A stretch of DNA of 60,413 nt, counting the filler, from Stramenopiles sp. TOSAG23-6 (Eukaryota), in assembly GCA_900128565.1 (NCBI GenBank). It is 13 parts of 13 records of this genome, joined end to end, with 100 filler letters (N's around TTAATTAATTAA, not from the genome) between each part and the next. Parts side by side here need not be neighbours in the genome. Positions count along the whole stretch, not along the records: positions 1 to 4,578 come from LT637123.1; 12 more parts are not named here. One strand, written 5' to 3'. Every line of letters starts with the position of its first letter. Position 1 is the first letter of the stretch. The translations under genes were made by a program, and so were the position numbers. The notes below the pieces were generated by a model. The model saw only the letters and a program-made list of their open reading frames with translations. It had not been told where the DNA came from and ran no database searches. Below are positions 1 through 49,140 of the stretch, piece after piece.

Positions 1-99
1 ATGTNTTTTGNAAAAATATTTNAAAAAAAAAATTTAATTTTTGTTAGGTACAAAATGTCGTACGAAAAAAAATTCATACAAAAAAAAAATAAAACATAC
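1..99 (-). other. Family intron GT...AT (downstream exon outside window)
   Basis: AT|GTATGTTTT donor, GTACCTAAC core, ends CAAAANACAT at position 1. Confidence 0.7.
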
Positions 100-915
100 A
101 TGCACCAAATGATTCTTCGTATCTTTGAGTATGTTTATAATTAGGGTTGGGGTTTCGATTATTTTTAGACGTTTTAGATATTTTAGTATTATTTTTAGTA
201 TATCGAAATGTTGAACGAGAGTGAGTCCGATTATGAGTTCGTCGCGACCGACTTGAAGAATGCTCTGAAGATTTACTGTCTATTTTAGATTTTGTATTCT
301 TTGGATTAAAAATAAATAAAGGTACTGGGTGGGAAGGACGTTAATATTGTAGAAAAATATGTTATATTTTTGAAAAACATCGTTAGATATAAAATTTGTT
401 TTTATGAAAATGTACGATGAAAAAAAAAATGAAATAAGTGAATACAAATTCAAAAATATTTTTGAAATATTTTTTTCATAGTAAAATTTGTACCTAACAA
501 AAAAAAACAAAAAAAACAAAAAAATGAAATGTAAGTGAATACCGTACAAGTCAAAACAGATACAATCACATCCAACACCAGATCGTTTCATGCGCGCATG
601 TGTTAAATCACTCAAGTCTGTGTCAACACGAAATGTTCCATTTGAAGCTGTGAGTAGTTGAATGGTCATACCACTACTACCTAAATTTCGATCAACATAG
701 GAAACATCAAAAATATTGAGTGTGAGATTTACAGCTTCTAAAATATTACCACATGTATTGTGAAAAAAAACAAGAATTTTACAAAAAAAAAAAAATCGTT
801 AGGTACGAAATGTACTATGAAAAAAGAAAACTATAAAGTAATACATTCATGATGAAAACGTGCATTCACCCGTTGACAGAGAAACACCATTTGATTTAAG
901 CCTGTGGTGAAACGC
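100..915 (-). CDS. DEPDC5: DEPDC5/Iml1 (GATOR1 subunit), internal exons 864-915, 548-752, 100-341
   Basis: Spliced translation GNILEAVNLTLNIFDVSYVDRNL...SGVGCDCICFDLRPSHPVPLF matches the Iml1/DEPDC5 vWA-like motifs; frame is open after intron removal. Confidence 0.8.
342..547 (-). other. Non-canonical intron GT...TA with internal duplication and an inverted family core
   Basis: GAC TT|GTACGG...CAATATTA|A CGT restores CFDLRPSHP; a 2-nt upstream shift would create a TAA stop. Confidence 0.65.
753..863 (-). other. Non-canonical intron GC...AT
   Basis: GAA T|GCACGTTTTCATCATG...CGTACCTAAC...CACAATACAT|GT GGT restores GECGNILEA. Confidence 0.8.
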
Positions 916-1010
916 ATGTATTTTGGAAAAATATTTCAAAACAAAAAATTCATTAGGTACAAAATTTCGTACGAAAAAAAAAAACGAATTTGAAAAAAAA
1001 TAAAACATAC
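916..1010 (-). other. Non-canonical intron GT...AT joining a CysRS exon to a DEPDC5 exon
   Basis: CAT|GTATGT...CAAAATACAT|GCG; phase 0 on both sides but the flanking exons belong to different genes. Confidence 0.7.
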
Positions 1011-2042
1011 ATGGCCTGTATGAACAAATTGAGACACCCAGCAATTAGGTTTACACTGTAAATATGATTCACTTTGAGCTATTTCGTTGCAGTGATGAGG
1101 AAATTGTAAATCAACACCCCCACCATGTATTGTAAAAAATATGCAAAAATTTGATTTTTTTGTTAGGTACAAATTTCGTATGAAAAACAAATAAATTTGA
1201 AATTCATGATGAAAACGTATATGTAAATTAAATGTTTTCCCCAACACTTGATGACTCATAGCACTGCATTCTATATGCCAACCAGGTCTACCACGACCCC
1301 ATTTGGAATCCCAAGTCACACAACTATCCCAATTTGTTTCTTTTTTTTCGGGTATGACTTTCCAAAGGGCAAAATCACGAAAATCTTTTTTTTCTGAAAG
1401 TTCATTTTGATCTGAATGAGAATTTATATTTGGTTGAGGTTGAGTGATAGTTGGGTCATTGGATAATCTACCATAAGCGTTACCAATAGAGGCTGTATCA
1501 AAATAAACACCACTATCGAGAATATATGCGTTTCCATTATCAATAATTGTCTGAATATATTCCTGAATATCTCCAATGTGTTCACTAACACGTGTCATAT
1601 TTGGTGGCAATTCAACACCAAGAGATCGCATGTCATTCAAAAATTCTAATTCATACAGCCGAGATAACTCTCTAGCAGACATACTACGTTCTTTTGCACG
1701 TGCAACAATCTTGTCGTCGACATCAGTAATTCCCATTACAGACACTACAGGCTGTCGGAAATAATCACGAAGAATACGTTGCATTATATCCAGGCACACA
1801 TACGTTCGCGCATGTCCAAGATGTGCGCTATCATACACAGTAGGACCACAATTGTACCATCGCAATATCCCATCATCATCACATTGTAAAGGCTCTAACA
1901 TACCAGTCACAGAATTTTGAATATTAACGGGTAACGTTCTCTGCATTGAAGGTGTAGCTGCTGAAGCAAAAGACCTATGAAAGGTTCGCTTTGTAACTAT
2001 TGAAGGGACAGCTTTGTACACCATGCGCATATGCGAACCCAT
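1011..2042 (-). CDS. Cysteinyl-tRNA synthetase, N-terminal part, probably organellar
   Basis: WYNCGPTVYDSAHLGHAR (HIGH), DFALWK, GRPGWHIECSAM, spliced LHGGGVDLQFPHHCNE; KMSKS region absent; N-terminus resembles a transit peptide. Confidence 0.93.
1125..1220 (-). other. Non-canonical intron AT...AT
   Basis: TTA CAT|ATACGTTTTCATCATG...GTACCTAAC...TACAATACAT|GGT GGG restores the conserved HGGG motif; 96 nt, so the ORF track reads through it. Confidence 0.85.
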
Positions 2043-2281
2043 TAGACAGATTACTCCGAGGAATATCAACAGAATTTATTTTATCAGTACTATACTTGAC
2101 GTAGAATCTGAGAGGTACACTGCGACTGTAGTAGCTACAGTACAGGCCTGTGTAAGTTAAAGTTTTCAAGACCGCGTGTCAGGGGTCAACAGGTTTGTTT
2201 GGTGTGAATTCGAATGGCCAAAATCGGCCAATCATCAGATGAAGAAGAAGAAGAAGAAAGTCTTTTTGACATAAATTGAAT

Positions 2282-3425
2282 ATGGAAAAGACAATGATAG
2301 ACTGGACGAATACAAAGATGGAATACAGGCAATTGGGCAAAACGGGACTTAAAGTCTCCGCTCTTAGTCTAGGTTCGTGGACGACATATGGAGGGACTGA
2401 AGACTACAAAACGTGTTATGATTGCTGTACGAAAGCTCTTCAACTCGGTTGCAATTTTTTCGATTGTGCAGAGATATATGCCAACGGTGAAGCTGAACGA
2501 GTTATGGGTATACGTTTTTTATTCTACAAAACTATGACAATATTTTATGATTGAATTACTTATTTATTAGTATAATACTTTACATATTTGTTTCTAAATT
2601 GTATAGAACCATACAACGTTGGATAAAAGAGGGTCTCTGTCTTCGAAGTGACCTCGTTATTTCTACAAAAATATATTGGGGTGGTCCAATGGCAGGAATA
2701 AAAGGTAACCCGAATGCTACAGGATGCAGCCGAAAGAGAATTATTGAAGGTACAAAAGCCTCTCTTTCTCGCTTAAATTTGGATTATGTGGATCTTATAT
2801 TTTGCCATCGTGAGGACTTCCAAACACCTATTGAGGAGACCGTACGGGCCATGTCATTTATCATTGATAAAGGGTATGCAATGTATTGGGGGACATCAGA
2901 AGTACCTTATTTCTATATGATTTCGATATTGTTGAAAAAATTTAAATATACACTATATATTTATCGCTTTATCATTACTATATTAATACACTCTACACTG
3001 GTCACCTGCAGCAATTTCGAGCGCAATTGAAATAGCGAGAAAGTTAAATTTGCACGAGCCTGTTATGGAACAGCCACAATATAGTCTACTTCATCGCCAT
3101 CATTTTGAAGTGTCTCTTGATCCCATTTTTGCTGATCATCGCGTACGATTTCATCAGTTATTTCAAATTTTTATTTTTTGTAATTTCAAATTGATTTTTT
3201 TTTTTCGTAAAAACAATAACAATTTATTTTTAAATATTTTTTCATAATAAAGTATGGTTCAACCATATGGAGTCCTTTAGCATGTGGCTTACTCACTGGA
3301 AAATATTCGGGTGGTAGTTTTCCTGCTGGTTCTCGTTTAGCACATGCAAAAAATGCATGGTTGAAAAATCAACTTGAAAATGGTGAAGATGGTACCTTAC
3401 CCCTAACCCTAACCAAATATCCAAC

Positions 3426-3458
<33 letters not shown>

Positions 3459-3985
3459 GTTTGAAAATTTATATCTTGGACAAATTTATACCTAACAAAA
3501 ATATCAAATGTAAAACTATTTTTTCAAAATAAATGGGGAGGAAATGGTTTAAATGGGCTTGAAGTGAAAGATCCTCAAGAAGCTCTTGATATGTCGGATA
3601 GACTGGCAACAATTTCAAAAAAACTTAAATGCACACAAGTAAGTTTTCATGATTTTCAATTTTCAATTTCTTTTTTTTCTTTTTTTTGTATGGAAATTTT
3701 GTACCTAACAATTTTTTTTTTCGTAAAAAAAAAAAAAAATACTTCTTCATAATACACGCTCAATTAGCTTTAGCATGGTGTTTAGTAAATCGTGATGTTA
3801 GTAGTGTTATTACTGGTGCAAGTAAAGTGTCTCAAGTAATTGAAAATTTTGAAGCTCTCGATATTGTAAAAAAATTGAATCAAGATATATTACACGAAAT
3901 CGATGTTTTATTGGGAAACAAACCGATCAGACCTAAATGCTGGGGTCGAGGTCGAAAACGCATCGGATATGGTCAAAGGGCGTAA
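2282..3985 (+). CDS. Aldo-keto reductase, Kv-beta (KCNAB)-like, 6 exons
   Basis: YRQLGKTGLKVSALSLGSW, FFDCAEIY, VISTKIYWG, YWGTSEW, EQPQYSLL, AQLALAW; introns at 2510-2604, 2902-2998, 3143-3252, 3392-3534 (or 3540), 3639-3757. Confidence 0.92.
2510..2604 (+). other. Non-canonical intron AT...AT (degenerate family member)
   Basis: GGT|ATACGTTTT...AATTGTAT|AGA restores RVMGRTIQ; the adjacent GT and AG do not give an in-frame product. Confidence 0.65.
2902..2998 (+). other. Non-canonical intron GT...AC
   Basis: GAA|GTACCTT...CTCTACAC|TGG restores conserved WGTSEWS. Confidence 0.8.
3143..3252 (+). other. Family-like intron with canonical GT...AG
   Basis: CGC|GTACGATTTCATCA...CATAATAAAG|TAT restores DHRYGSTIWSP. 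Confidence 0.85.
3639..3757 (+). other. Non-canonical intron GT...AC
   Basis: CAA|GTAAGT...GTACCTAAC...CATAATACAC|GCT restores CTQAQLALAW. Confidence 0.85.
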
Positions 3986-4165
3986 TTGTTGTAGGGTATG
4001 AATACAAATATATTTTTATAGTTTTGACTTTCAAATAAATTCAAATAAAAAGGGAAAAAAAAAAAAAGTGTTGAAATTTGAGTTTTATTTCAATACAATA
4101 AAAATAGTGAAATAAAATCGTTTTTTTTTTAAATTATACAAATACAAAATATAGTAGTAAATTTT

Positions 4166-4459
4166 CTATACTAATGAATGCTTTGGAGGATTAGTCGAAT
4201 TATTCTTATTACAAGGGTCATTTGTGTTATTTGAGCCATTTGAATGAGTGTTACAACTATTAGGGTTAGGGTTTTGATGCATTTCTTCCTCAAATTCTTG
4301 AACTGTATTAGGGTTAGGGTTTTGATGCATTTCTTCCTCAAATAGTTGATGAACTTTACTGATATGATCCAATTCTTCTTGTGTAATCACTCCACTCTTC
4401 ACTTTAGCCTTTGCCGCTCTGACAGAATCTTCTAATGCTGTTTGTTCCTGTCGTCTACG
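4166..4459 (-). CDS. Hypothetical protein, last exon, with tandem FEEEMHQNPNPN repeat
   Basis: Open frame follows a family acceptor CACGATATAT; duplicated unit at about 4257-4342. Confidence 0.5.
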   Translation of the reverse strand, partial: RRRQEQTALEDSVRAAKAKVKSGVITQEELDHISKVHQLFEEEMHQNPNPNTVQEFEEEMHQNPNPNSCNTHSNGSNNTNDPCNKNNSTNPPKHSLV

Positions 4460-4578
4460 ATATATCGTGAAAAAATAACTACAAAAAAATTCAAATTTTT
4501 TGTTAGGTACACAAAATTTTCAATGAAATTTTCAATGAAATTTTTTTTTTTTTTTTTTTTTTATTTCAAAAAAAAAAA

Positions 4579-4678
4579 NNNNNNNNNNNNNNNNNNNNNN
4601 NNNNNNNNNNNNNNNNNNNNNNTTAATTAATTAANNNNNNNNNNNNNNNNNNNNNNNNNNNNNNNNNNNNNNNNNNNN
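4579..4678. other. Artificial contig spacer (also at 9247, 13907, 18567, 23225, 27877, 32528, 37177, 41826, 46474, 51121, 55768)
   Basis: Identical 100-nt N-TTAATTAATTAA-N linker about every 4.65 kb. Confidence 0.98.
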
Positions 4679-5036: not shown

Positions 5037-5569
5037 TCTTTGGTACCGTAAAGTGTGTTGAATGGAATACTTTTTTTTTGTAGAGTATAGTCTGATACTA
5101 TTTAGGTATACACTGGTGAATTATTTGACCATGTAGAGTACTAAATGAGTAGCGTTTTGTGAGAGAATACAGTACAATATATTCAATATTGTGGTACTTT
5201 TGCAATTACCGGTTATTGATGACAACGAGGACACAAGTCAACGAAACGATTTTTATGACAGGTATTTGACATGCGGCATTTTGTGCCAATTTTTGTACCA
5301 ATTTTTTGTACCAATTTTTTGTACCAAAATAAATTAGAAATCGAAATCAAATCGAAATGTGTTATCGGAAATATCGGATGTTTTTGAAGTAACTGTCTTT
5401 TTTTTTTCTTTTTTCTCTTTTTTGTTTATGTGTACTGGAAAGACGTTTTATTTGACATGCGGAATTTGTACCATTTTTTGTATTTCGAATTGACTTGAGT
5501 TCAAAAATCGACTTGTATAGATCCATCACACCTGTGCCAAGGGCCAAGGTCTCGATCTCGCTGAAGAAA

Positions 5570-6694
5570 ATGACGACGACGAGCGGCCCCACAACAGTCC
5601 GCAGAGGAAGGGCGCAAGGTGCCGGAGGGGGGGGGGTTAAAACAAGTCTCTCTTCGTTTATGCTTGTTTTTGTTACATGCATCAGCAGCATGCGGGACCA
5701 CGAGGGTCGTGGCGGAGGCGGATACAGAGGCGGCAGGGGCAGATCTTGGCGAATGCGGCTTTGCAGTCACATCGGAATCGACACACTCCTCGGCGCATGC
5801 CGCGTTCAGGCAGTGCGGTTTCCTCACGTCATCAGTGCCCGTTGTGGCGGAGCGCTTCCTCGCCGCCGCACACAGCCACTTATCTCACACTTTCTCAGGC
5901 AAAAACAACCTCGTCCCTTCCCTCGTCAAGCAAGAGCAACTGCTGCCGGTGCCTGGGGGGTCCGGCCGACGCGACTACTTCCCGGCCCTTGACTACCCGT
6001 TTGACGAGACCATGTTCACGGCATTGCTGCCGAGCTTCTGGGAGCGGTTGCACGGTATCTTTGGGGACGGGTGTTGCGAGCTGGCGCAGACCTCATCCCG
6101 AGTGCCCGGCGGCCGAACGAGCAACTTTACTTCATGATCGATCTCAACGATTACCACAGCGGCGCCCTTGAGATACTCGGCGGCTGTTTCATGTATGGGG
6201 CATGGGATGATGCCAAGGCACCGGGAGCGGCGGAGACCGAGCGAAAGCGCCGATGCGGAAGTCGTTGCCACGAGTTCCTGCAAACTGATAAGCAGCTCTT
6301 AAGCCTACTGAGGACGCCGGATGATCTCTCTCTGCCGGAACGTGAAGAGGTTCAAAGGCTCTTTGCAAAACTGCAGGTCGACGAGCGCCGCTGCGGCAAG
6401 GAGACCGGGTGGCACCGGGGGGGCCGCGCCGGCCACTGGGTCGTGTACACCCCCGCGACTCTGCATCGAGGGCGGCAGCTTCTCAGTGAGCTGGACGAGC
6501 ACCGCTTCGTCCTCATGCTTGACATCGCTCGCATCGGCTCAGATTACAAGCGCTTCGTGGACATGCAGCGCCACAGTAGCACGCCCAGATTGCAAGCCAT
6601 GATGGAGCAACGCAGAGCGTGGTTTGCACAGGAGCGCGAACGGTGGTTGGCCACCACCAAGAAGCACGGTGGTGGTGGCGGGTCGGAACTCTAA
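5570..6694 (+). pseudogene. GC-rich PhyH/2OG-Fe(II) dioxygenase-like gene with an apparent frameshift near 6090-6135
   Basis: A GT-AG intron at 5619-5685 joins ATG 5570 in frame to ORF 5619-6137; ORF 6071-6694 carries AGHWVVYTPATLHRG...HRFVL, like the distal His motif of PhyH enzymes. Confidence 0.45.
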
Positions 6695-7091
6695 CATTAG
6701 TAGCCCTAGCAATCCACTGGTTGGTAGGCAGCCTCATCGACTAGTGTAGCCCATCAATCGCCCGATTGACTTGACAGCATGCCGCCGGTGTATTAAGGAT
6801 AAGAAGCAGTGTGCACCGCACAAACCCAATATAAAAACCAATATAAAACCCAAAACGGGGTAAAATAGCGGCTGTACCAAAATAAATTTAGAAATATACG
6901 AAATTTTTATACCAAATTTTTATACCAAATATTTGTAAAAACAAAAAACAACGAAATAACTACTTTATCAAACTGCGAAAAAACATCTAATAATAACACA
7001 TAATTTTAGGGCATACGTGATTACGTGATATATCATGTATTATGTATCTTATTGTCTCTTACATCTCCTACATACTACAATTTTTAATTTT

Positions 7092-7761: not shown

Positions 7762-8913
7762 ATGTTCAAGAACACATTTCAATCAGGTTTTTTATCAATT
7801 CTCTACTCTATTGGTAGCAAACCACTTCAGATATGGGACAGAAAAGTCAGAAATGGACATATCAAGAGACTTACGGGTAAGTATTTTCTACAAATGTTCG
7901 GAACTGACCATTAGTGTTTATTTTTTTTTGTCCTTTACACTTTTTAGGATTTATAGTTTGATTCCAATGTTTTTTCTTGAGTAAACTGTATCGTAATGAA
8001 AAGCAAAATATGCCATCTTCAATACTTGCCATGTATGTGTGTGCTTGCACGATATATATTGCTGGTGTTGTTCTTTCACGCTAACTTTCCCCATTGGCTC
8101 TTCAAATCTTTCTTTGTATACGAAAACGGAAGACGCCACACAATCTNNNNNNNNNCATACAACATATTGACATATATACACATAACACAGACCCTGATAT
8201 TCAATCAAGTGTATTGGAAATTCTTGGAACTAATGTCAGTACAACGTTTATAAGTTGCCCAGCTGACTCAAAAAAGACCCTAGGTATCAAGTTGCCTTTT
8301 CTTGTAATGATTATCAAAAACATGAAAAAATACTTTACATTCGAAGTACAAGTTTTGGACGATAAAAATGTGCGTCGCAGATTTCGTGCTTCAAACTACC
8401 AATCGACCACTCGTGTTAAACCTTTCATTTGCACCATGCCAATGAGACTTGACGAAGGATGGAATCAAATTCAGTGTATGTTTTATTACAATTTAAAATT
8501 TTAATTTTTTTTTCGTACGAAATTTTGTACCTAACGAATTTTTAAAAATGTTTTAAAATATTTTCCTACAATACATTTAATCTCTCTGATTTTACACGCC
8601 GAGCGTACGGTACTAACTACATTGAAACTCTTCGTGTTCAAATACATGTACGTAACCACAACCCTAATTATCGCTCAAAGAGTCCATCTTGATTTTTTTT
8701 TTTTGTACCAAATTTCGTACCTAACGATTTTACATTTTTTTTTTCTTCACAACACAGGCGAATTGTCGTATCCGTCGAATTTACTTTTCCGATCGACTTT
8801 ATTCAGAGGATGAATTACCACCTGAATTTAAGTTGTTTCTGCCTATTGCCAAAGGTGCTGAGGCACAGCCAGCTGCAGCTACCCAGCAGGTTGCTGTTGA
8901 GAATCCTGCATAA
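7762..8913 (+). CDS. CFAP20: Cilia- and flagella-associated protein 20 (BUG22), 4 exons
   Basis: [26 protein letters not shown]...[18 protein letters not shown]...[18 protein letters not shown]...VQIHANCRIRR. Confidence 0.97.
7877..8190 (+). other. Canonical GT-AG intron without the family core
   Basis: G|GTAAGT...AACACAG|AC restores KRLTDPDIQS. Confidence 0.9.
8476..8576 (+). other. Non-canonical intron GT...AT
   Basis: CAG T|GTATGT...CAATACAT|TT AAT restores conserved QIQFNL. Confidence 0.9.
8648..8757 (+). other. Family intron with canonical GT...AG, fixing the splice register
   Basis: CAT|GTACGT...CGTACCTAAC...CACAACACAG|GCG restores QIHANCR; a 2-nt shift would change the conserved His to Gln. 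Confidence 0.92.
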
Positions 8914-9527
8914 GAGTTCTAATTTTGTATAATAATTTCTTACTTGAGGTATTTTATGGTGTATTTATGGATTATCTTTTTTGTGTTTTAACAAGGATAG
9001 TTTTTTTAAATTTTATAAATTATACTATACTTTTTTTATTTGTTTTTTGTTAATAGTGTACATCTACTATATTTATTTTGTATTTGTATATTTTATTTTA
9101 CTTAGAAGTGAGACCCTTAGAGTACATCATTCTCTCTCTTTATTGTATTTTTAAGTGTTTGGAGATGTGCTGAATAAACTTCATCAACGTATTGACAATC
9201 TTTTATTCTTTTTCTTTCCTCTGTACTACTTTTTAAACGATAATTTNNNNNNNNNNNNNNNNNNNNNNNNNNNNNNNNNNNNNNNNNNNNTTAATTAATT
9301 AANNNNNNNNNNNNNNNNNNNNNNNNNNNNNNNNNNNNNNNNNNNNGTTTTCATTATGAATTTCAAATTTATTTTTTTTTCATACGAAATTTTGTACCTA
9401 AACAAAAAAGATTTTTTTTTAGTTTTTATTCAATACGTTTTCATCATGAATTTCAAGTTTACTTTTTTTTTTTTTATAAAAATTTTGTACCTAAACAATT
9501 TTTCTTGAAATATTTTTCTGTAGCACA

Positions 9528-10238
9528 GAATATTTGCAAAGCTTTCATCATGGGTAACGCCACTGAAAATATTCTTGATGATGCTGTCCGCCACTGCCAG
9601 TATGCGGTGAATGTAATTGTCCCTGTCAGTGAACGCCTATGTTGTGCTGGTGATAGTGATAGTGCGTTTCCATAATGAATTGTTTACCTACATCTTTTTT
9701 TCGTATGAAACTTTGTATCTAAGGATTTAAAAAAATATATATTTTTCACAATGTATGTGATGGTGAAAATATTAATTTAGAAAATTCTAATTGTGATAAA
9801 ATTGTTCATAGTTCTAGGCAAAATATTGTTGATAAAAGTATATCTAACCAAAATCATCAAGAAAGACATTTACATATGAGAAAGACCTTGTGTGATCTAT
9901 ACCAAACATCAAATAGTCATCATGTTTGTTTTTTTTTTTTTTTCAAATTCGATTTTTTTTTTTATAAAAATTTTGTACCTAACAAATTCTAGTTTTTTTT
10001 TTTGAAATATTTTTCCAAAATACATTCTATGAAAAAGTATAAAACATTGGATTCACTGAATAATGACCCTACCATGAATACACGTAATATTGTACACAAT
10101 ATATCACGAAATACATCAACCAGTAGTGAACTATCACAAATTTCACAGCAACAACCGTCAAAATTTGTGACTCCTGGGCCAGGTTCACAAGAAACTCCAG
10201 CATCTGGATTGTTTCTTTATACTCCAAGTGTACTATAA
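9528..10238 (+). CDS. Hypothetical protein C-terminus, possibly with a USP-like motif; GT...AT introns at 9662-9756 and 9924-10025
   Basis: Continuous frame after removing both introns; FIMGNATENIL...VNVIVP weakly resembles a USP-domain end. Confidence 0.55.
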
Positions 10239-15105: not shown

Positions 15106-16872
15106 ATGTGGCGTGGTGATCGTTTTATTCCAAATCGAAAGACAAACATTGAAACTACTTCGTTCCTCTCAATGTTGAAAGAGAATCACGAACCATATGA
15201 CACGTTCATATTCAAGAAACAAGTTGCGTCTATTTTGTTTAACAGTTGTAATACAAGTCGCCGTGTTTTTTCTTTTACACCAAGCATAGCTAATTCACCA
15301 CGAAATACACAAAATACTTTAGAAAATATTAGGTCCTTGTACTGTAGAGGTAAACAGACGACAAAGACTCCAAAAGGTTCGCGTAATATTTCACTCGTAA
15401 AAGTTCTCGATGCGCCAGACTTATTAGACGATTATTACCTGAATCTTCTTGATTGGTCAGTCGATAATATTCTAGCAGTTGCTTTACAATCATTTCTTTT
15501 TTTGTGTATGTTTTATCTGAATTTCTAATTTAATTTTTTTTTTTGGTTTTCGTACGAAATTTCGTACCTAACGATTTTTTTTAGATTTTTTTTGAAATAT
15601 TTCTTCACAATTCGTGGAATTCTCACACAAACGAAACGGAAGAACTTTTAGAATTAGACGGTAATGACTATATTTCATCTGTGAAATTTTCAAGTGCAGA
15701 TGGAAATATTCTTGCTATAGGCACAAGTAATTATCAAATACAATTATGGGATATCAAAAAAAAAATAAGAATTCGAATTCTCACGGGGCATCTTGGACGC
15801 ATGTAAATTTTATTTTTTTTTTAAACAAAAAAATCGAGTTTTTTTTTTTTTCCAAAAAAATATTTTTTTCATATGAAATTTTGTACCTAAAAAAAAAAAA
15901 AAAAAATATTTTCAAAAAATACATATGTGGTTTAGCATGGNNNNNNNNNNNNNNNNNNNNNNNNNNNNNNNNNNNNNNNNNNNNNNNNNNNNNNNNNNNN
16001 NNNNNNNNNNNNNNNNNNNNNNNNNNNNNNNNNNNNNNNNNNNNNNNNNNNNNNNNNNNNNNNNNNNNNNNTTTTTTTTTTTTTTTTTTCCAAAAAAATA
16101 TTTTTTTCATACGAAATTTTGTACCTAAAAAAAAAAAAAAAAATATTTTCAAAAAATACATATGTGGTTTAGCATGGTCCTATGATGGAATCTCACTAGC
16201 ATCTGGAGGAAATGATAATTTGTGTTGTATCTGGGATTCACGATATTCAATGAAATGTTCTACCAATCAAAATGAACATAAAGTGCGTTGTATTCTTCGC
16301 GCGCACAAAGCTGCTGTCAAGGCCATCGCATGGTGTCCACACCAAAGTCATCTACTCGCATCAGGTATTTTTTTTTCATAGTAAATTTCGTACCTAACGA
16401 TTTTTTTATTTTTTTTCAATTTTTTATCTATATTTTTTTTTTCATAGTAAATTTCGTACCTAACGATTTTTTTGTGATTTCCTATTTTTCACAATACTTG
16501 TGGAGGCTGTAATGATAAAACAATCAAATTTTGGAATACAAGTATTTTGTCTAATGAAGCAACATGTATCAAAAGTGTTTTTACAGGTAGTCAAGTGTGT
16601 GCTCTTCTTTGGAATCAACACAGAAAAGAAATTTTATCTTCACATGTAAATTCTATTTTTTTTTAATTTTTTTTTTAAATTTTTTTTTTCATACGAAATT
16701 TCGTACCTAACGATTTTTTTTTTTTTTTACAATTTAAATTCGTATTTTTTTACAATCCATGGATATTCTGAAAATCAAATCTGTTTATGGCGGTATCCAA
16801 ATATGAAGAAAATTATAGAGTTAACTGGACATACAAAACGTGTTTTACATTTATGTACTTCTCCTGATGGAG
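15106..16872 (+). CDS. CDC20: Cdc20/Fizzy family APC/C activator (gapped; 3' end lost)
   Basis: C-box [66 protein letters not shown]. Confidence 0.9.
15506..15615 (+). other. Non-canonical intron GT...GT
   Basis: TTG T|GTATGT...CACAATTCGT|GG AAT restores LFLWNS. Confidence 0.85.
15803..15924 (+). other. Family intron GT...AT, possibly collapsed from two introns
   Basis: CGC AT|GTAAAT...AAATACAT|A TGT; its 3' half recurs after the N gap. Confidence 0.6.
16365..16499 (+). other. Non-canonical intron GT...TT with duplicated core
   Basis: TCA G|GTATTT...CACAATACTT|GT GGA GGC restores conserved LASGGG. Confidence 0.85.
16646..16760 (+). other. Non-canonical intron GT...AT
   Basis: CAT|GTAAAT...TACAATCCAT|GGA restores SSHGYS. 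Confidence 0.88.
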
Positions 16873-18818: not shown

Positions 18819-20257
18819 ATTCATTTTTTTCGTATCAAAATCTATAGTTTTTCCATGTCCAAATTGTATAGTACCTCCTTTATATAAAAATGGATATTGA
18901 TCAATAGATCGAATACCAAATTTTTGTTTTTCTTGAGGAGTAGCTCCTTGAACTAAATAATAAAATATATGAAAACATCTATCACCTTGACATAAATGAG
19001 ATAATCTTGATTTTTCTAATAAATAATGTTGTACTGTAGCTCCCATGTTTTTTGTGAAAAAAAAAATTTTGAAAATTTGTTAGGTACAAAATTTCATACG
19101 AAAAAACCAAAAAAAAAAAAATTGTAAAAAAAAATTGAAATTGAAAAAAAAAAAAAATTTGAAAATTTGTTAGGTACAAAATTTTTATAAAAAACCAAAA
19201 AAAAAAAAAATTGTAAAAAAAAATTGAAATTGAAAAAAAAAAAAAGGTACTTCAGTTGACCCGTTGATGAATTGAAATAAATTTTCATAAATTTTCCAAA
19301 ACGACTTGAATTATCATTTAGATGTGATTTAGCATTCCCAAATGCTTCAAGAATTGTACTAACATTTTGTATTAATGCTGATATATCGAAATTCTTTGTT
19401 TCAAAATTTTTTGTTTCAAAATTTTTTGTTTCAATTTTTTTTGTATTTTTCGTGTTTGAGAAAAATGTTAAATATTTAATAAATAAACCACAAGTAACTG
19501 TCTTACCTGCTCCTGATTCACCGGATACTATACAACTTTGATTTTGTATATTTTGTATATTATTTTCAAATTGATTGTTATATGCACGTGCGGCAATCAC
19601 ACTAACACTTGGTCGGTGTTTTTTTTGTTTTTTTTGAATGTTTTGAATTTGCATTAATGAAGAATTGGTATGAAATTTCGTACCAAATGAATTTGGAATG
19701 TTCATATATGGATTGATGGATAATAAAACATCACCAACAAATGTATAAATATACTTTTGTTGAATATATCTACGACGAAGAATTTTTAGTAGAATAGCTT
19801 CACTAAAGGAAACAATAGTACAAATATCATCGTTTTTTTGAGTTTCCTCATTTTCTTCTTCATTTTTGTCCCCAATTGAAATTTGTCTTTGTTTGTGTGC
19901 TTCATCCCAAGGATACACATAATTACAATCCAATTCTACGATACTCCCATCACGTATCTGAATAGAATGTTTTTCAGTACCCCATTCTTTTATTTCACCC
20001 ACGTCATACAACTTTGTAACCATTGTTTGTGTCACATTATGAAGGTGACTTCCGGGGCATTGTCCACGTTTATTATAGTCACTTCTAAACTCATCCAGTG
20101 TTTGATTTAAAGATTGTAAATGTGAACGACGAAATGTAGCATCTGTTTCCATTTTGTGGAGAAATTGTGTACGTAATACATCATTTTGAACAACATCAAT
20201 ACAACGTTCAACGTTTCCCTTGAAGTTATCACCTACACGATAGTAACATTTAGCCAT
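18819..20257 (-). CDS. Myosin heavy chain, 5' part
   Basis: IYTFVGDVLLSINPY, VSGESGAGKT, LEAFGNAK, NDNSSRFGKF, YLLEKSR, FHIFY. Confidence 0.93.
19045..19250 (-). other. Non-canonical intron GT...AT made of a tandem-duplicated unit
   Basis: CTG AA|GTACCT...CACAAAAAACAT|G GGA restores GQLKGATVQHYLLEKSR; two GTACCTAAC cores. Confidence 0.8.
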
Positions 20258-32183: not shown

Positions 32184-33465
32184 ATGTCCGTTTTTAGGTA
32201 TGGAAATTTGTACTAAAATGTCGTGTTTTTAGGTATAGAAATTTTTACTAAAAACGTCGCATTTCTAGGTTAAAAATGTCATGTTTTAGAATGTAGATTG
32301 TAGATTTGACCAAAGGAGTTATAAGAAAGAAAACACTTTTTGTTTTCAATATTTTTAGAATGAATGTCTCAAATTCTTTTTCATAAAAGTTTTTTTCAAT
32401 ATTTTTAGAATGAATGTCTCAAATTCTTTTTCATAGAGTTTGTGTGTTGAATCACAAAAAAACATTTTGTAGGCATGTATTTTGGAAAAATATTTCAAAA
32501 AAAAATTCGTTAGGTACAAAATTTCGTNNNNNNNNNNNNNNNNNNNNNNNNNNNNNNNNNNNNNNNNNNNNTTAATTAATTAANNNNNNNNNNNNNNNNN
32601 NNNNNNNNNNNNNNNNNNNNNNNNNNNTTGTACCTAACAAATTTTTTAAGATTTTTTTTGAAATATTTTTCCAAAATACATGGTGCTAAACATTTCAATA
32701 CACCTAAACACAAAAAGTCACCATTTCAAAAAATCTTTCAAATCTTTCAAATCTCTAATGTTTTCCATTTAATCTGCTTTGGATTTGGAATTGTGTTGAT
32801 ATTAGGGTTAGGGTTTTATCTACGATGTAGAAAATATCGAATTCAATTCAAGCGTAAACAGTCTCTGTAGTCTTCAGTATTGTTGTACGCATTGTGATAT
32901 TCGTGATATTCCGTACCATTTTTTACATACGATGCTTCATTTAAAAAAATAATTTTATTTTTCTTCAAAATACAATTACTTTTGAAGTGTATATATCTTC
33001 TTTTTTTTTTAAATTTATTATGATTCACTTTGAATTGTGTCATCAGTTTTCCAAATATTTCTTTTCCATTTGCTTTATGGTCTTGAAGAAACCTGCAGGC
33101 GCCATCCAATGTGTGATGTGTGTAGCTAAGGCCGATTTCATCAGTGCAGCATAAGTCATATGACTTATGACGTTTTTTTTATGATTTTATAGACTTATGT
33201 TTCTGTGCAGTTCATCAGCAATTGTCATAACCTAGGTGGACTCGAACCCTCGACCTTATGAATTATTAAAATTCAACTTTTGACCACTCATTTTTGATAT
33301 TTTATTTTAAACATCATTTTTGTTCTGTGGTGTGTACGCTTTGACCAAGTAGTAGTAGTCGTCGTCGTTGTCTTCCTTTTCAATAATACCAAGTTGATTC
33401 CCTCTTATACAACTGCATCATATTATTGTTTGAATAGAGAAACACAGAATTATCATAGAGTCCTG

Positions 33466-34377
33466 ATGGCTGAAAATAATCATGGTGAAATTGATGCTGA
33501 GCCCTTGCCCTTGTCCTTGCCTAAAACAAAAAAAAGAAAACGAAGATCTAACTTTACGACTGATGAACTTCCACTTATTCTAAGGGCTGGGTATGCAGCA
33601 AGTCACAATAACAAGGGTTCAGATAATAAGACGTCGACACTTGAAGAATTGATTGAAGCCAATTTCAAGAAACTCAGACCTTCTTCAGTAAGAACTGGCG
33701 ATGCACTTTGGACAAAGTTCAAAAATCTCAAAAGAGATTGCGGTAAGTACTATACTATTTACTGTACTTTAAAGAGAGCTAAGAAGTCAGGTTGGGAAGA
33801 GGAAACATACTATCACGAATCAATTAAAGCTATGAAGAAGAATTTCAGTACTACACCTGCCTTTTCTCAAGAAGTTTATGCTATCTACAAAGAGATGCAT
33901 GAAATGCACGAAACAGCAACTGTGAAAAAAGGCACCAGCGGAAGAAACAAAATTCGAGCAATTGACAAGGCAAAGAAAGGTGTACAGCAAATTATTGATC
34001 TTACAAAAAAAGAAACAAAACACCAGCAAAAGGCCATGTTAGATGCCCAGAGAGATCGTTCAGCAGCAGTTCAGCAGATGTCCCAAGTTATGTTCATGAG
34101 GCAAATACGATCTTCACCACCGGGTAGTGAAAACAGTAAATTTCTGGAATTCATTGAGGGAAATCAAAGAAAACTTATGATGATGCAGATGGAAGAGAGC
34201 CTGCTTAGACAGCAGGATAAGATTGATAAACTAAAGAAGAAAATAAACAATGGCAAAGAAAGTAAGGACAAAGAAAACAATGAAGAAAACAATGAAGAAA
34301 ACAGCAATGAAGAAAGCAATGGCGACAAAGAAAAAGACGAAGAAAACAACGAAGAAGACGAACTTCTTGTCTCATAG
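33466..34377 (+). CDS. Harbinger Myb/SANT-like accessory protein
   Basis: NFTTDE...LRAG...RTGDALWTKFKNLKRDC...KKSGW; lies inside the TIRs. Confidence 0.85.
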   Translation: MAENNHGEIDAEPLPLSLPKTKKRKRRSNFTTDELPLILRAGYAASHNNKGSDNKTSTLEELIEANFKKLRPSSVRTGDALWTKFKNLKRDCGKYYTIYCTLKRAKKSGWEEETYYHESIKAMKKNFSTTPAFSQEVYAIYKEMHEMHETATVKKGTSGRNKIRAIDKAKKGVQQIIDLTKKETKHQQKAMLDAQRDRSAAVQQMSQVMFMRQIRSSPPGSENSKFLEFIEGNQRKLMMMQMEESLLRQQDKIDKLKKKINNGKESKDKENNEENNEENSNEESNGDKEKDEENNEEDELLVS

Positions 34378-34564
34378 AAAAATATCGTTAGGTACAAAAT
34401 TTCGTATGAAAATGTTACATGTATACGTTACTTTTTTATCTTTCATATTCTACATTAATTTTATATCTTTCCTATTGCACATCTAGATAAAAAGAATAGC
34501 AATAAAAAGAATAAAAATGATAAAAGAAAATTATTTTGAAATTCAAATCATCTTTATAATAAAA

Positions 34565-36037
34565 TTAATATTGGGAAATTAATGCATCTCTAAGTTTGAA
34601 ATGGGCACTCTTACTACAGATTGATGAGTATCTTTGCTGAATTAAATCTGCAATTGTTATTCCTTCAGCTTCAGCAAGTAGGTCTAGCACTGTATCGACG
34701 CATTTTCCTTCAAGAAAAGCTTTTAGATCAGGGTCTCTTTCTTCTTCTATTTCTGCATTGTAAAGGTCTCCTTCAAATTCTGAACCGAAAAAAAGAACAT
34801 CGCAATTGTTTGCAACTATCATATTATGCATCAAAAAACAAAATTTTATCATTGTTCTCAAGTCTTCAATGTTTTGGTAATAAGCTGCAGATCGCATGAA
34901 TGCAAACCTCTTCTGAATTACCCCAAAAAGACGTTCAACATCTTTTCTGATTGCTTCATGGCATTTAACATATTTTTTTTGTGATGTTGATATTGGGTTC
35001 ATTGATATTGCATAACAGGCCCACTTTGGGTACACACCATCGCCTAATCTATATTGAATAGAAAATTCAGATTGCTCACCTGACTTTGATTTAATAAAAA
35101 ACTGTTTTTCACCGAATTCTCCTCGTAGAAATGCACCAAGCATCGGATCACGCTCCGCAACACGGTTGTCTGGTTCTGTCCCGAGCCCTGAAAGATTAAG
35201 ATGTGCACACCACAAATTACTGTGGCTGACTGCACTGACTTTTACACCACAACCTTTGTCACCCTTGAACTGTGCCTGGAGTATTTTAGGGCACGCATCC
35301 CATCTCACAACCATGCAGTCTTCAGACCCATGACAACCTGGAAATCCTGCTAACTCTTTTGATTTCAACTCTCTTTTCATCATATCCAGATGCAAAGGGT
35401 GTTGTGAAAAAATCTGTGGTAGATACTTGTCTCCTAGATTTTTTACAGTAGCACGTGCTACTTGAAGAATCTTCTTCCCAATTGCTGATTTTCCAAATCC
35501 AACTGGACACTCTAATTGAATATCAGCTACTGCAGTCCGTACCTTTTTTAGTAAAGCTAGCAGTCCTAGATCAGCAGACATTCCAAATTTTCCAGTGGCA
35601 TTGGGTTTAGCTGCGCAATCATCTTTAATATTGATGAGAACTTCTTCGTAAACTTCTTTTGGTACGCCAAAATGCTGATGGAATTCAAGATCAGTGTAAA
35701 GTTGTGTGTTATTCTCAGTGGCGAAGAATTCTTTGAACCAATTAGTTGGTGTTCTTTTTCTTTTTTTCCCTCCTGGTTTGCTACCACCTCGTCTGTCACG
35801 TTTAACTTCTGCTTCCCATTGTTGAAAGTTACATATATAATTTTGACTACTTGTATCTAATGCAAACTCATCATTATCTGTAGCTATTAGCATAGCAGCT
35901 AGTTCTTCTTCATCAGATGTGTCCATTGTATTACATAAGTTGAAAACTACGCAAGACTTGTCACACGATTGTACACGACGACGAAGTTCATTCGACTCGA
36001 CACGTTTTGATGTTTGACCGATGATTCTATATAGCAT
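34565..36037 (-). CDS. Harbinger DDE transposase (HARBI1-like)
   Basis: GFPGCHGSEDC, LGDGVYP, RKDVERLFGVIQKRF, LMHNMIV. Confidence 0.92.
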   Translation of the reverse strand: MLYRIIGQTSKRVESNELRRRVQSCDKSCVVFNLCNTMDTSDEEELAAMLIATDNDEFALDTSSQNYICNFQQWEAEVKRDRRGGSKPGGKKRKRTPTNWFKEFFATENNTQLYTDLEFHQHFGVPKEVYEEVLINIKDDCAAKPNATGKFGMSADLGLLALLKKVRTAVADIQLECPVGFGKSAIGKKILQVARATVKNLGDKYLPQIFSQHPLHLDMMKRELKSKELAGFPGCHGSEDCMVVRWDACPKILQAQFKGDKGCGVKVSAVSHSNLWCAHLNLSGLGTEPDNRVAERDPMLGAFLRGEFGEKQFFIKSKSGEQSEFSIQYRLGDGVYPKWACYAISMNPISTSQKKYVKCHEAIRKDVERLFGVIQKRFAFMRSAAYYQNIEDLRTMIKFCFLMHNMIVANNCDVLFFGSEFEGDLYNAEIEEERDPDLKAFLEGKCVDTVLDLLAEAEGITIADLIQQRYSSICSKSAHFKLRDALISQY

Positions 36038-36403
36038 TTCGTGTTTTATTGAAGTTATGACGCGAGATAAAGTTAATAAAAAAAAGACAATTTATCATAA
36101 AATGCAAAAAAAAACATAAAGTTATGACAAAAATTTATGATTATCATAACTTTTTTTACTGATGAATCCGGTAATCATAACTTTTTGTCATAAGTTACCC
36201 GGGAACCATACTTATGCTGTACCGATGAAACCGGCCTAATGGTATAAGTTATATAATAATATTATATGACGATGACGTCATTGGTTTTGATTGACTTCGT
36301 TTTTTTCAAATCTTTGACTGGCCGATCTGATCTGGCCGATGAGAAAGTTTCTCCATGTGTGGCAATAATAAACATAGTTTTGTAGCAACAAACGTTTCTA
36401 AAA

Positions 36404-37117
36404 ATGCGTTCTTTGGTTTCAGAAACTTTTGTCCATGTATTGGCAATATTAGCTGTTAGTACTGCTCAAGTGTCTGATATTTTCTCATCTGTTGATCAAG
36501 AGCTTGCTATGAATGTTGCAAGGCTTACACTTGCCAATTCATCTGACACGTGGGACCTTGCAAAGGCTTCTACTATTTTGCACCTCACAGATGGACAATC
36601 GAAAAGTGTAATTACATGCTCTATGGCAACAGATGCACTTCGTGTTGCGGAAAGTGCTTCGGATATCCATGCTGCTGTGGTAATTGAACAGGTGGCAGGT
36701 GGGTGTGGTATCAAGTTGGAAGATTCCATGGTGAATACTTTAATCAAGGCCTCAGAGTCAAGTGTTCTTATGGATATTTACCACGGAGTGAAAGCACTTC
36801 ATCAAACGGGTAAGACAATAAATAGTAACACTGTAACAGAAAATGTAATTTCATTGATGGAAGAAGATGGGGCATTTCGAGAAGCGGCGGATAGTGATTA
36901 CTCTTCGGAGCTTAACGCTGGTTATGCATATGAAATTCTTTCGATTACGTACCCAAAACTAGAATCCAAGTGGATATCGTCCAAGAAAGATAAAACGGAA
37001 ACAACTCCAGAAGCTACGAAAATATTTAATCTATTGGAAAATATCGATACTGTAGTTGATGGCATTGGCACTATACTTGATGCTTCGGAAAAAGTCGATA
37101 TGTCTCTCTCGATAAAT
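36404..37117 (+). CDS. Probable ribophorin II N-terminal part (contig ends in a family intron)
   Basis: Signal peptide plus helical lumenal region resembling RPN2; assignment by resemblance only. Confidence 0.5.
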
Positions 37118-38114
37118 GTATGTTTTATTTTTTTTCAATTTCGAATTTATTTTTCGTACGAAATTTTGTACCTAACNNNNNNNNNNNNNNNNNNNNNNNN
37201 NNNNNNNNNNNNNNNNNNNNTTAATTAATTAANNNNNNNNNNNNNNNNNNNNNNNNNNNNNNNNNNNNNNNNNNNNTTGTACCTAACAAATTTTTTAAGA
37301 TTTTTTTTGAAATATTTTTCCAAAATACATGGTGCTAAACATTTCAATACACCTAAACACAAAAAGTCACCATTTCAAAAAATCTTTCAAATCTTTCAAA
37401 TCTCTAATGTTTTCCATTTAATCTGCTTTGGATTTGGAATTGTGTTGATATTAGGGTTAGGGTTTTATCTACGATGTAGAAAATATCGAATTCAATTCAA
37501 GCGTAAACAGTCTCTGTAGTCTTCAGTATTGTTGTACGCATTGTGATATTCGTGATATTCCGTACCATTTTTTACATACGATGCTTCATTTAAAAAAATA
37601 ATTTTATTTTTCTTCAAAATACAATTACTTTTGAAGTGTATATATCTTCTTTTTTTTTTAAATTTATTATGATTCACTTTGAATTGTGTCATCAGTTTTC
37701 CAAATATTTCTTTTCCATTTGCTTTATGGTCTTGAAGAAACCTGCAGGCGCCATCCAATGTGTGATGTGTGTAGCTAAGGCCGATTTCATCAGTGCAGCA
37801 TAAGTCATATGACTTATGACGTTTTTTTTATGATTTTATAGACTTATGTTTCTGTGCAGTTCATCAGCAATTGTCATAACCTAGGTGGACTCGAACCCTC
37901 GACCTTATGAATTATTAAAATTCAACTTTTGACCACTCATTTTTGATATTTTATTTTAAACATCATTTTTGTTCTGTGGTGTGTACGCTTTGACCAAGTA
38001 GTAGTAGTCGTCGTCGTTGTCTTCCTTTTCAATAATACCAAGTTGATTCCCTCTTATACAACTGCATCATATTATTGTTTGAATAGAGAAACACAGAATT
38101 ATCATAGAGTCCTG

Positions 38115-39026: not shown

Positions 39027-39213
39027 AAAAATATCGTTAGGTACAAAATTTCGTATGAAAATGTTACATGTATACGTTACTTTTTTATCTTTCATATTCT
39101 ACATTAATTTTATATCTTTCCTATTGCACATCTAGATAAAAAGAATAGCAATAAAAAGAATAAAAATGATAAAAGAAAATTATTTTGAAATTCAAATCAT
39201 CTTTATAATAAAA

Positions 39214-40686: not shown

Positions 40687-41052
40687 TTCGTGTTTTATTG
40701 AAGTTATGACGCGAGATAAAGTTAATAAAAAAAAGACAATTTATCATAAAATGCAAAAAAAAACATAAAGTTATGACAAAAATTTATGATTATCATAACT
40801 TTTTTTACTGATGAATCCGGTAATCATAACTTTTTGTCATAAGTTACCCGGGAACCATACTTATGCTGTACCGATGAAACCGGCCTAATGGTATAAGTTA
40901 TATAATAATATTATATGACGATGACGTCATTGGTTTTGATTGACTTCGTTTTTTTCAAATCTTTGACTGGCCGATCTGATCTGGCCGATGAGAAAGTTTC
41001 TCCATGTGTGGCAATAATAAACATAGTTTTGTAGCAACAAACGTTTCTAAAA

Positions 41053-41766: not shown

Positions 41767-41925
41767 GTATGTTTTATTTTTTTTCAATTTCGAATTTATT
41801 TTTCGTACGAAATTTTGTACCTAACNNNNNNNNNNNNNNNNNNNNNNNNNNNNNNNNNNNNNNNNNNNNTTAATTAATTAANNNNNNNNNNNNNNNNNNN
41901 NNNNNNNNNNNNNNNNNNNNNNNNN

Positions 41926-46631: not shown

Positions 46632-49140
46632 TTATGGACTTTATTGTCCTGGGGACCCACATGGATATACAAATGCTGTCACAGGATATCCACAATTATG
46701 TAAAGGGGGTTACTATTGCCCATCTCCAGCGAAGCAAATCATTTGTCCAAAAGGATATGCTTGTCGTCCTGGATCATCTGAACCTTCTCTATGTGTTTTT
46801 TTTCATGAGTGTCCCAAGGGATCTTCTCGACCAAATGGTAGTTTTATTGGTGTAGTTTCTGTCGTTATTTTGTTTTTATTTGTCCATTCTTTTAAATATA
46901 TATATCTTTGCATTCGAAATGGAAATAGAATTGCTAGAGAAACTACACCAAGTTCGAAATATTGGCGACGTGCAATGTCTTATGTACCATCTTGGCGTAA
47001 AATCAAAAATATTAATGGTGAAGATAGACCTTTATTAAATGTATTGAATCATGATATGCAAAACGCCTTTGATGATGAAAATTCAGAAAATGTACCAATA
47101 ATACCATTAATGACTGCTGAACCTTTGTTACGTTCTGAAAATAGTGAAAAAGTTTCGATTATTTTTCATCGTATTACAGTAAAGTTGGAGCCTAATTGTA
47201 CATCTTTAGTAAAACATGACAAAAGAATAGAAAAAATAATTATCAAAGATGTAACTGGAACTCTTAGAAGTTCACGACTCACTGCAATTATGGGTCAATC
47301 GGGATGTGGTAAAACGACTTTATTGAATGCCCTTTGTAACCGAATAATTCGTCCAGCGAAATTGTATGGAGATGTCTATGTAAATGGTACTCTAATGCCT
47401 AGTGGGATATCAAAAGATATAACAGGTTATGTTCCACAAGATGATACAATGCATACTGAACTAACAATACGTCAGTGTCTTTGGTTTTACTTAGAATTGA
47501 AAGGAAATCCGCAAAAAACATTTCGTGAAAAAAAAATGCATTTGAATAATATACTTACAGTGTTAGGTCTATATAATATTCGACATTCTATTATTGGAGA
47601 TACAGAGACACGTGGTATTAGTGGTGGGCAAAGGAAGAGAGTAAATGTAGGTATTGAACTTCTAGCTGACCCAACAGTTCTCATGCTGGATGAACCTACA
47701 TCGGGGTTGGATAGTACTACATCTGCAGATCTCATCTCAACTCTTTCAAATTTGGCAAAGACAGGGCTTACTATAGGGATGGTCATTCATCAACCACGAC
47801 CAGAAATTTTAGACATGACTGATGTGCGTTTTCAAAATTGAATGTATAATTTTGTTTTTTGTAATTTGTATCTAACAAAACAAATGAATGTAAAGTATTT
47901 TTCTAATATGCATGATTTGATATTACTCCAACGTGGACGATTGGTGTATTGTGGTCTTTGTGACAATGCCAATGCTTACTTTGAATCTTTAGGTTATGTT
48001 TTACCTTCTAGAACAAGTCCTGCAGATTTTTATCTTGATTTACTAGTAAGTACAGCAACATATGAAAATGAGGAAAGATGTCTCTATAATCAATGGAATC
48101 AGAAAACATTTAGAGAACAGTTGAATTTGGATACAAAAGAGGATACTATAAATCATTCAGATGATGTTGTATCACTCATTTCTTCAATGTTTTCCTCTAC
48201 AGATTCACCTCCGAAATCAAGAAAAAAACCTTCATTTACAGCACAATTTATTACCATAATTAAGAGGGGTCTTGTTCAACATGGTTGGCCCACGAGTTCT
48301 TTCCTTGGAGATGCATGTACATTTTTTTTTCATTTTTGAATGTATTAATATTTTTTTTATAGAGAATTTCGCATTCAAAACAAATGAAATTTGAAATATT
48401 TTTTCACAAATTATTATTGCTTGTATTTTCTGGTGCATTACTTGGTGCTGTATTTTCCTCAGGTAGTACCAATGAGCTTACAATGCGGTTTCTTTTATCT
48501 TCACTTGCAATTGGTTTAACAGGCACTCAATCTGCTATTACAATTTTCGGTGGAAAAGAAAAAGTTATTTTTTTACGCGAATCTGCATCTGGTATTAAAG
48601 TAACAGCGTATTTCTGGGGCAAGTTAGTATCGTATCTTGTTCGTATCCTTACGGCACCTGCTTTTTTTCTGTTGCTTTATTATCCTCTGTCAGCTCCAAG
48701 ATTCTCTTTTTTTGTATATTATCAAATATTGTTATGGACAAATTTAACAGCGATGTCAATAGGAGTTTTAATATCCCTCTTATTTTCACGAAATTCGGCG
48801 TTTTTTTGCGGGAGTCATTGTTTCCTTAATATCTATATTATTTTCTGGTATGCAACCACCCGTCAAGGAATTGGAAACCACCATTTTTGGTCAGATTGGA
48901 ATGTCACTTTCATACGCTCGTTGGACAACAGAAGCTCAATTTTTTATGGAGCTCAGTGCATATCCTCCATCAGCATATAAATTAAATGTTGTGAGTGGCA
49001 TTATAAATTTCTTAGGCTATGGTCAAAACCATACACTTAATTTAGAAACTGTTTATGAACTGTGTATTGTTCAATTACTATATATTACTGTGGCTTGTTT
49101 GTTAATATCATATATAATTTTACTACGAAATGCAAGATAA
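46632..49140 (+). CDS. ABCG half transporter with Cys-rich extracellular N-region; GT...AT introns at 47824-47913 and 48317-48414; homopolymer frameshift at about 48805
   Basis: GQSGCGKTT, ISGGQRKRV, LDEPTSGLDS, IHQPR; spliced DMTDDLILL; FLRESASG. Confidence 0.9.

Follow-up and report, generated by a model that had tools for sequence, protein, structure and literature searches.

Can an intron be spliced when GT is missing from its start and G from its end? The question is raised by a stretch of 60,413 nucleotides (nt) from the protist Stramenopiles sp. TOSAG23-6 (assembly GCA_900128565.1; the whole stretch is called the window below), in which three introns seem to begin with ATACGT or GCACGT. 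They lie in genes for a class I cysteinyl-tRNA synthetase (CysRS; PF01406), for a Kv-beta type aldo-keto reductase (AKR; PF00248) and for an IML1/DEPDC5-type protein (PF12257). A preliminary description of the window presented them as AT-AT and GC-AT introns with a relaxed donor, and proposed that the constraint linking the first and the last intron base is loosened here at both ends. We believe, with reasonable assurance, that they are copies of a spliceosomal introner whose excised form ends without G, and that the copies with a mutated donor in conserved genes are still spliced. DNA and homology lend good support to non-GT donors in the introns of CysRS and AKR, and weak support to one in the IML1 intron. 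That the three introns are spliced, where exactly they are cut within direct repeats, and that the major spliceosome is used, we infer.

The window consists of 13 contigs, arranged from the longest (4578 bases) to the shortest (4546 bases) and connected by linkers of the form N44-TTAATTAATTAA-N44 (4579-4678, 9247-9346, etc.), and its G+C content is about 32%; all three introns in question sit in contig 1 (1-4578). We placed 28 introns by hand, partly guided by motifs, 23 of them family-like, and this set is not complete for the window. The start of an intron was set at the GT position of the family and its end after the last AT, AC or AG. With these borders the reading frame stays open over ±60 nt in all 27 testable introns; when the 3' border is shifted by 1, 2 or 4, only 10-13 of the 27 keep an open frame. 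The 28th intron (CysRS intron 2) was left out of this count, as the next intron begins 52 nt downstream; its frame is open that far. Intron lengths modulo 3 are distributed as 8/6/12.

The ends of these introns are far from the usual ones. The 28 terminal pairs are GT-AT (19), GT-AC (3), GT-AG (2), GT-GT (1), AT-AT (2) and GC-AT (1), so GT forms the first two letters in 25 of 28 introns, AT or AC the last two in 25 of 28, and GT-AG accounts for two. The last three bases are CAT in 15 introns, TAT in six, CAC in two and something else in five, which gives Y-A-Y in 23/28. The same Y-A-Y also stands directly upstream of the donor in 13/28 (CAT 10, TAT 3), and N-A-T does in 18/28. The remaining signals are of the major type: donor, branch site and pyrimidine run are all present, with a CTAAC-type box 32-53 nt from the intron end in 25/28, followed by T-runs. 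Four introns pass over an AG that follows the branch-like box by a few bases and lies 31-34 nt from the 3' end. Introns with varied donors outside the element family described below likewise end in AC or AT.

Most of the placed introns are copies, about 100 nt long, of a single high-copy element with a GTAYGT start, the branch-like core TACCTAAC and an ...AYAT end. The 8-letter core was counted 44 times in the window, where we estimate about two occurrences of a random sequence of that length. A single family alignment unites twenty introns, with the start GTAYGTTTT, the core TTTGTACCTAAC and the end ...CACAATACAT or ...CAAAATACAT. Copies are found in the CysRS, IML1, AKR, RFC and CFAP20 genes, in a gene for an ABC-like protein and in others; near-identical introns thus recur in unrelated genes, as is characteristic of introners. 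The abundance of the element is also visible in an independent seawater DNA run (X3), from which 5649 contigs were placed on 4556 bases of contig 1, heaped on the element copies. At least 12 of the 26 contig ends in the window, read by eye, fall inside such copies, and hence the assembly breaks at the intron element. Some introns contain two cores, from tandem or nested copies (9347-9528, 16370-16498 and 19045-19250), and one internal copy, at 9433, also begins with ATACGT.

A direct repeat of at least 2 nt spans the borders in 18/28 introns, mostly AT and once GT on both sides; by simple arithmetic a 2-nt repeat would be expected by chance in about 1 case of 16. From its sequence this repeat looks like a target-site duplication, one copy of which is kept in the mRNA, again as in introners. 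The element ends, read by eye, are imperfectly inverted (terminal inverted repeats). RNAalifold applied to the 20 aligned introns returned 0 consensus pairs, i.e., no consensus hairpin.

Because of the border repeats the borders can slide without any change in the mRNA, and the placement of an individual intron is often ambiguous. Three anchors favour a GT start with a cut after AT: the join 3638/3758 seen in RNA, the unambiguous AKR intron 2, and a copy in a gene whose product we take to be CFAP20/Bug22. The last of these ends with AG exactly where its siblings have AT, and so fixes the 3' border of the family. The three introns in question allow 13 placements altogether (CysRS 6, IML1 4, AKR 3); none starts with GT, and none is of the GT-AG or GC-AG type.

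On this basis we can propose how such introns may have arisen. A miniature inverted-repeat transposable element (MITE)-like introner would bring along the donor GTAYGT, a T-run and, 32-53 nt from its end, a branch-site-like TACCTAAC; a short target repeat, in most cases AT, would flank it on either side. The excised intron would then be the element plus one repeat copy, which would restore the host frame exactly; excision of this unit makes the intron end with Y-A-Y (mostly CAT), not AG. The donor changes would have followed in single copies: G to A at +1 in CysRS intron 1 and in the family-like AKR intron 1, and T to C at +2 in the IML1 intron. Since the copies with mutated donors persist in conserved genes, they are most likely still spliced. 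We lean, if only slightly, towards a broader statement: this marine stramenopile lineage independently re-set its splice-site code, the introner, removed with one copy of its AT target repeat, having turned Y-A-Y (AT first, AC next and AG last) into the usual intron end; where the last base is not G, A at +1 is tolerated.

In the CysRS gene, intron 1 splits the H/GGG motif of the catalytic domain, and its siblings in the family alignment carry GTACGT where it has ATACGT. Excision brings H next to GGG, the arrangement seen in P0002, a homolog of 62% identity, and H-GGG is kept whole in every homolog among the matches listed. The six equivalent placements include AT-AT and AT-AC. The protein closest to the CysRS frame is a stored predicted coding sequence, P0001 (1013-2075, minus strand; source name beginning GSMAST32), identical at 283 of 284 aligned residues; it is followed by P0002 (62%; from a eukaryote protein set) and an oomycete protein (43%). 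These matches place the organism among the marine stramenopiles, and the source name of P0001 suggests a MAST-3-like member. A tunicate source, to which Y-A-Y had pointed, was rejected on the same matches, and Amoebophrya on its G+C content. P0001 runs into intron 1 and ends inside intron 2, and it omits the GGG...HH catalytic stretch as well as a coding stretch of 20 residues. Its reading into intron 1 and its lack of the catalytic motif suggest that the introns went unrecognised in the gene model. No proteins from transcripts of the same species were found for CysRS or AKR; the best non-self matches are 62% and 76% identical, respectively.

In the AKR gene all five joins agree with the homologs residue by residue. 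Intron 1 allows three placements, AT-AT or TA-TA only; across its join an invariant G and the next residue are contiguous in 7/7 homologs, and Kv-beta structures match that G. A reading from GT at 2508 to AG at 2606 was tried and rejected, as the frame shifts into a stop. A 29-base exact stretch of exon 1 had 0 matches in JGI contigs. Several smaller observations belong to this gene. The last base of intron 2 (2998) is C in the window and T in contigs of X3 and of the RNA library X7, a natural AC/AT difference. A telomere-like CCCTAA repeat of about two and a half units occupies 3404-3420, just inside the start of intron 4. An X7 contig (record 21; 3278-3392) follows exon 4 up to 3392 and continues into 36 unplaced letters; this would fit GT-AT splicing of intron 4.

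In the IML1 gene the family alignment places GC where the other copies have GT, and the four placements are GC-AT, AT-AC, TG-CA and CA-TG. A scan with donor letters +3 to +8 for further non-GT donors added none: the AT and GC matches inspected lay in coding sequence, antisense or in leaders.

We compared positions 23-4578 with the RNA runs X7, X9 and X10 (X10 is polyA RNA, X7 is not) and with X3. An X3 contig (record 12) covers 1193-2700 with 9 substitutions and 8 gap letters relative to the window, none of them at 1215-1220, 2508-2515 or 2599-2606. Its agreement at both ATACGT sites gives independent support for A at +1 in the CysRS and AKR introns. Contigs that stem from sibling copies part from the window at 1219; the first letter of their unmatched end is C, corresponding to G at +1 in the direction of the gene. 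Population variants include a net -1 indel within AKR intron 1; all indels fall in introns or intergenic DNA, and most differences in exons are silent. Among the joints listed, one shows splicing directly: a polyA contig (X10 record 5) passes from 3638 straight to 3758, with flanks of 104 and 98 letters, and defines a GT-AC intron.

The individual introns discussed in the text are listed in the table.

Table. Introns discussed in the text; positions are those of the window, and terminal pairs refer to the model borders
Intron	Position	Strand	Description
IML1-like intron 3	340-542	-	GT-AC, ends AAC; element core antisense beside a sense TATCTAAC box
IML1/DEPDC5-like intron	753..863	-	111 nt; element copy; GCACGT start, ...ACAT end
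CysRS intron 2	916..1010	-	typical element copy, GTATGT...ACAT
CysRS intron 1	1125..1220	-	96 nt; element copy; ATACGT start, ...ACAT end; splits the H/GGG motif
AKR intron 1	2510..2604	+	95 nt; ATACGT start, ...TGTAT end; family-like ends, no clear core
AKR intron 2	2902..2998	+	GT-AC; unambiguous borders; join matches homologs
AKR intron 3	3143..3252	+	GT-AG
AKR intron 4	3392..3534	+	GT-AT (or TA-TG); residues across the join match homologs
AKR intron 5	3639..3757	+	GT-AC; element copy; join seen in RNA
CFAP20 intron b	8648..8757	+	element copy ending ...ACAG where siblings end ...ACAT
Intron	9662..9756	+	GTGCGT start, GT-AT
Intron	9924..10025	+	GTTTGT start, GT-AT; element copy
Intron	47824..47913	+	GTGCGT start, GT-AT

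How do the claims of the preliminary description fare against these data? The six unusual starts it had named (ATACGT twice, GCACGT, GTGCGT twice and GTTTGT) are present in the window where it placed them. The retention of G at +5 and T at +6 holds at the six sites; it does not go beyond chance, considering that +5G occurs in 21/28 and +6T in 26/28 placed introns. The relaxed donor is borne out insofar as the DNA of the CysRS and AKR introns has no GT, and no placement with GT yields the conserved protein. As to the terminal pairs, AT-AT fits the AKR intron (or TA-TA), while the CysRS and IML1 introns can equally be read as AT-AC. The loosened relation between first and last base receives a divided answer. 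One GT-AC join in polyA RNA, together with the AT or AC ends in 25/28 introns, indicates that G-G pairing of the first and last base is not the rule in this organism. The first..last base counts are G..T 21, G..C 3, G..G 2 and A..T 2, and with such counts a loosening of the constraint cannot be told from a change of it.

Several observations weigh against our interpretation and should be stated together. The intron set was, as mentioned, partly motif-guided. None of the junctions 1124/1221, 752/864 and 2509/2605 was among the joints listed, RNA cover there being nil or thin. Reads across the CysRS HGGG motif had been proposed as a check; RNA depth on the exon upstream of intron 1 is 0-3.3, and their absence among the joints says nothing either way. 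The sole RNA-library contig across AKR intron 1 (X7 record 18, not polyA) is unspliced. CysRS intron 1 is the only one of the 27 tested introns that is stop-free in frame, so its translation is not excluded by sequence alone. For the IML1 intron, GCACGT (858-863) lies outside the cover of unique contigs among those listed, which leaves its GC without independent confirmation; an in-frame alternative donor, GTGAAT, is available 6 nt upstream (864-869); and a homolog search with the IML1 exon found no relative. Finally, contig 1 is probably chimeric, switching from CysRS to the IML1-like gene inside CysRS intron 2. The CysRS frame ends after ...HTGH without the KMSKS region, into which the homolog continues, and the next exons are IML1/DEPDC5-like; a polyA contig (X10 record 4) tracks the CysRS exon to 1009 and then continues with 60 letters that do not fit the window.

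Could a GT donor be hidden nearby? In the IML1 gene this would be the GTGAAT just mentioned, with two residues lost; in the AKR gene it would be GT at 2508 with the end at 2602, a GT-GT intron. Both readings keep the frame, and the family itself includes a copy that is GT-GT at the model borders and a second that ends with ...ACGT. We consider this explanation unlikely. For AKR it would put D in place of the invariant G described above; for IML1 it is opposed only by the family alignment, where the element starts at GCACGT behind the usual AT.

It is tempting to read the CysRS and IML1 introns as AT-AC, i.e., to cut them two bases upstream at both ends. The A-C pair would then be kept, and the changes would fall at +3 and +4, where they matter little. 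This placement leaves the mRNA of both genes unchanged, as it does in 11/28 introns overall, and the repeat that allows it is systematic, AT preceding the donor and also closing the intron. However, it is impossible in 17/28, including AKR intron 1, the GT-AC intron seen in RNA and the AG-ending CFAP20 copy, while GT as the first two letters fits 25/28 and agrees with the usual donor consensus. We regard the AT-AC reading as quite improbable.

That the family is spliced by the minor (U12-type) spliceosome, or by a transformed minor-like one that accepts either purine at +1 and more than one kind of last base, seems very doubtful to us. The element does have a long conserved donor and a CCTAAC-like core; yet no intron of the 28 starts with RTATCC, and the donor RTATCCTT is not found. 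U12-type branch points lie about 10-20 nt from the 3' end. Here, instead of TTCCTTRAC near the 3' end, the core is TACCTAAC, and its branch-like A is 32-53 nt from the end. Moreover, the non-family introns share the AC or AT ends in spite of their varied donors, and an Rfam search of the window gave 0 matches, with no small nuclear RNA found in it. In favour of the minor spliceosome, non-canonical termini of U12-type introns are on record, including AT-AT (12) and GT-AT (7) of 66 in the accessible portion of PMC1557818.

Similarly doubtful is the proposal that the mutated donors are defects, with retention or mis-splicing of the copies concerned, perhaps translation of the CysRS insert, or loci that are dying or mis-assembled. 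It can draw on the missing spliced reads, the unspliced contig over AKR intron 1, the stop-free CysRS insert and the apparently chimeric contig 1. Against it, the same letters recur in an independent DNA contig, and the variation reported above (mostly silent in exons, indels confined to introns and intergenic DNA) also speaks against it. A translated insert would break H-GGG, and the five AKR joins match the homologs. As for the unspliced contig, other X7 contigs (records 19 and 20) are also unspliced over AKR introns 2 and 3, one of which is GT-AG; the library may therefore hold DNA or pre-mRNA.

Removal of the elements from DNA (as in ciliates) or by an end-joining RNA fold (as in nonconventional introns of Euglena), in place of normal splice-site reading, is hardly credible: the short border repeats with one copy kept and the imperfect terminal inverted repeats would suit it, but environmental DNA contigs (X3 records 12 and 13) retain the introns, the 20 introns have no consensus pairs that would bring their ends together as in Euglena, the change at +1 or +2 in two copies has no counterpart at the 3' end, and the donor, branch-like box and T-run are of the spliceosomal type.

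Two further observations come from elsewhere in the window. The contigs at 32628-37176 and 37277-41825 are identical across all 4549 bases. The region 5400-6800 is a GC-rich island (contig G+C 0.40, versus about 0.32-0.35 elsewhere) in which both strands have long open frames that overlap, none with a match in Pfam; it may be foreign DNA or a low-complexity gene.

If the three donors are used as we read them, introns with A..T and G..T as first and last bases are spliced routinely, which bears on the strictness of first/last base pairing in the second step of splicing. The organism would then be a second, distant lineage, after the tunicate Fritillaria, for studying the re-tuning of a spliceosome that follows invasion by introners, and a case of convergence with that tunicate in a protist for which environmental and single-cell data are the main source. 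There is a practical side as well: gene models based on GT-AG would be systematically wrong for such genomes, and standard gene finders would fail, as exemplified by the stored CysRS prediction without its catalytic motif. By the same reasoning, gene counts and "lost" or "decayed" genes in such assemblies may partly be artefacts.

The introners of Micromonas and Aureococcus (Huff et al., 2016) reportedly carry one splice site and have the other made in the target duplication. The present family resembles them, judging by the part of PMC11282704 available: in both, one site comes with the element and the second from the target duplication, and the reading frame is recovered. It differs in that those introns are canonical GT-AG (so stated for the stramenopile case in the available part of PMC7789003), whereas here the duplicated target supplies AT. 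U12-type introns tolerate A or G at +1 and the pairs AT-AT and GT-AT, according to the accessible portions of PMC1557818 and of a preprint on Physarum; the donor motif, the branch motif and the branch-to-end distance observed here do not fit them.

Comparable introns are already known in Fritillaria and Amoebophrya, and for this lineage no report was found: in the literature on marine stramenopiles of the MAST type, PMC5778133 does not contain "splice" or "non-canonical", and PMC12614181 does not contain "intron". The introners of Amoebophrya have border direct repeats of 3-5 nt, inverted end repeats, variable and ambiguous termini, and MITE-like traits (available part of PMC7789003). Repeated introns with border direct repeats and ambiguous termini are common to both systems. 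The same part of that source reports no dominant terminal pair or family-wide motif for Amoebophrya, and a G+C content above 50%; here there is one family with a clear GT...AT pattern, a G+C content of 32% and no consensus hairpin.

A very close parallel is found in Fritillariidae, as far as the available part of PMC13326754 describes them. In Fritillaria borealis and F. pellucida most introns escape GT/AG, and AT is the commonest 3' end (34% and 44%, respectively). Introns there close with a Y-A-Y triplet, which is also frequent just before the donor, and this rule served to place borders that were ambiguous. A connection with introner transposons was proposed, A..T and A..C are common first/last pairs, and the question of isostericity between the first and last bases is discussed for F. 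borealis (same part of PMC13326754). The two systems differ in the donor, with AG/AC and AG/AT leading in F. borealis and GT present in 25/28 introns here, and in their hosts, a tunicate there and an organism whose closest proteins are stramenopile here. They are alike in Y-A-Y at the intron end (23/28 here) and before the donor (13/28 here), in AT as the commonest end and in ambiguous borders.

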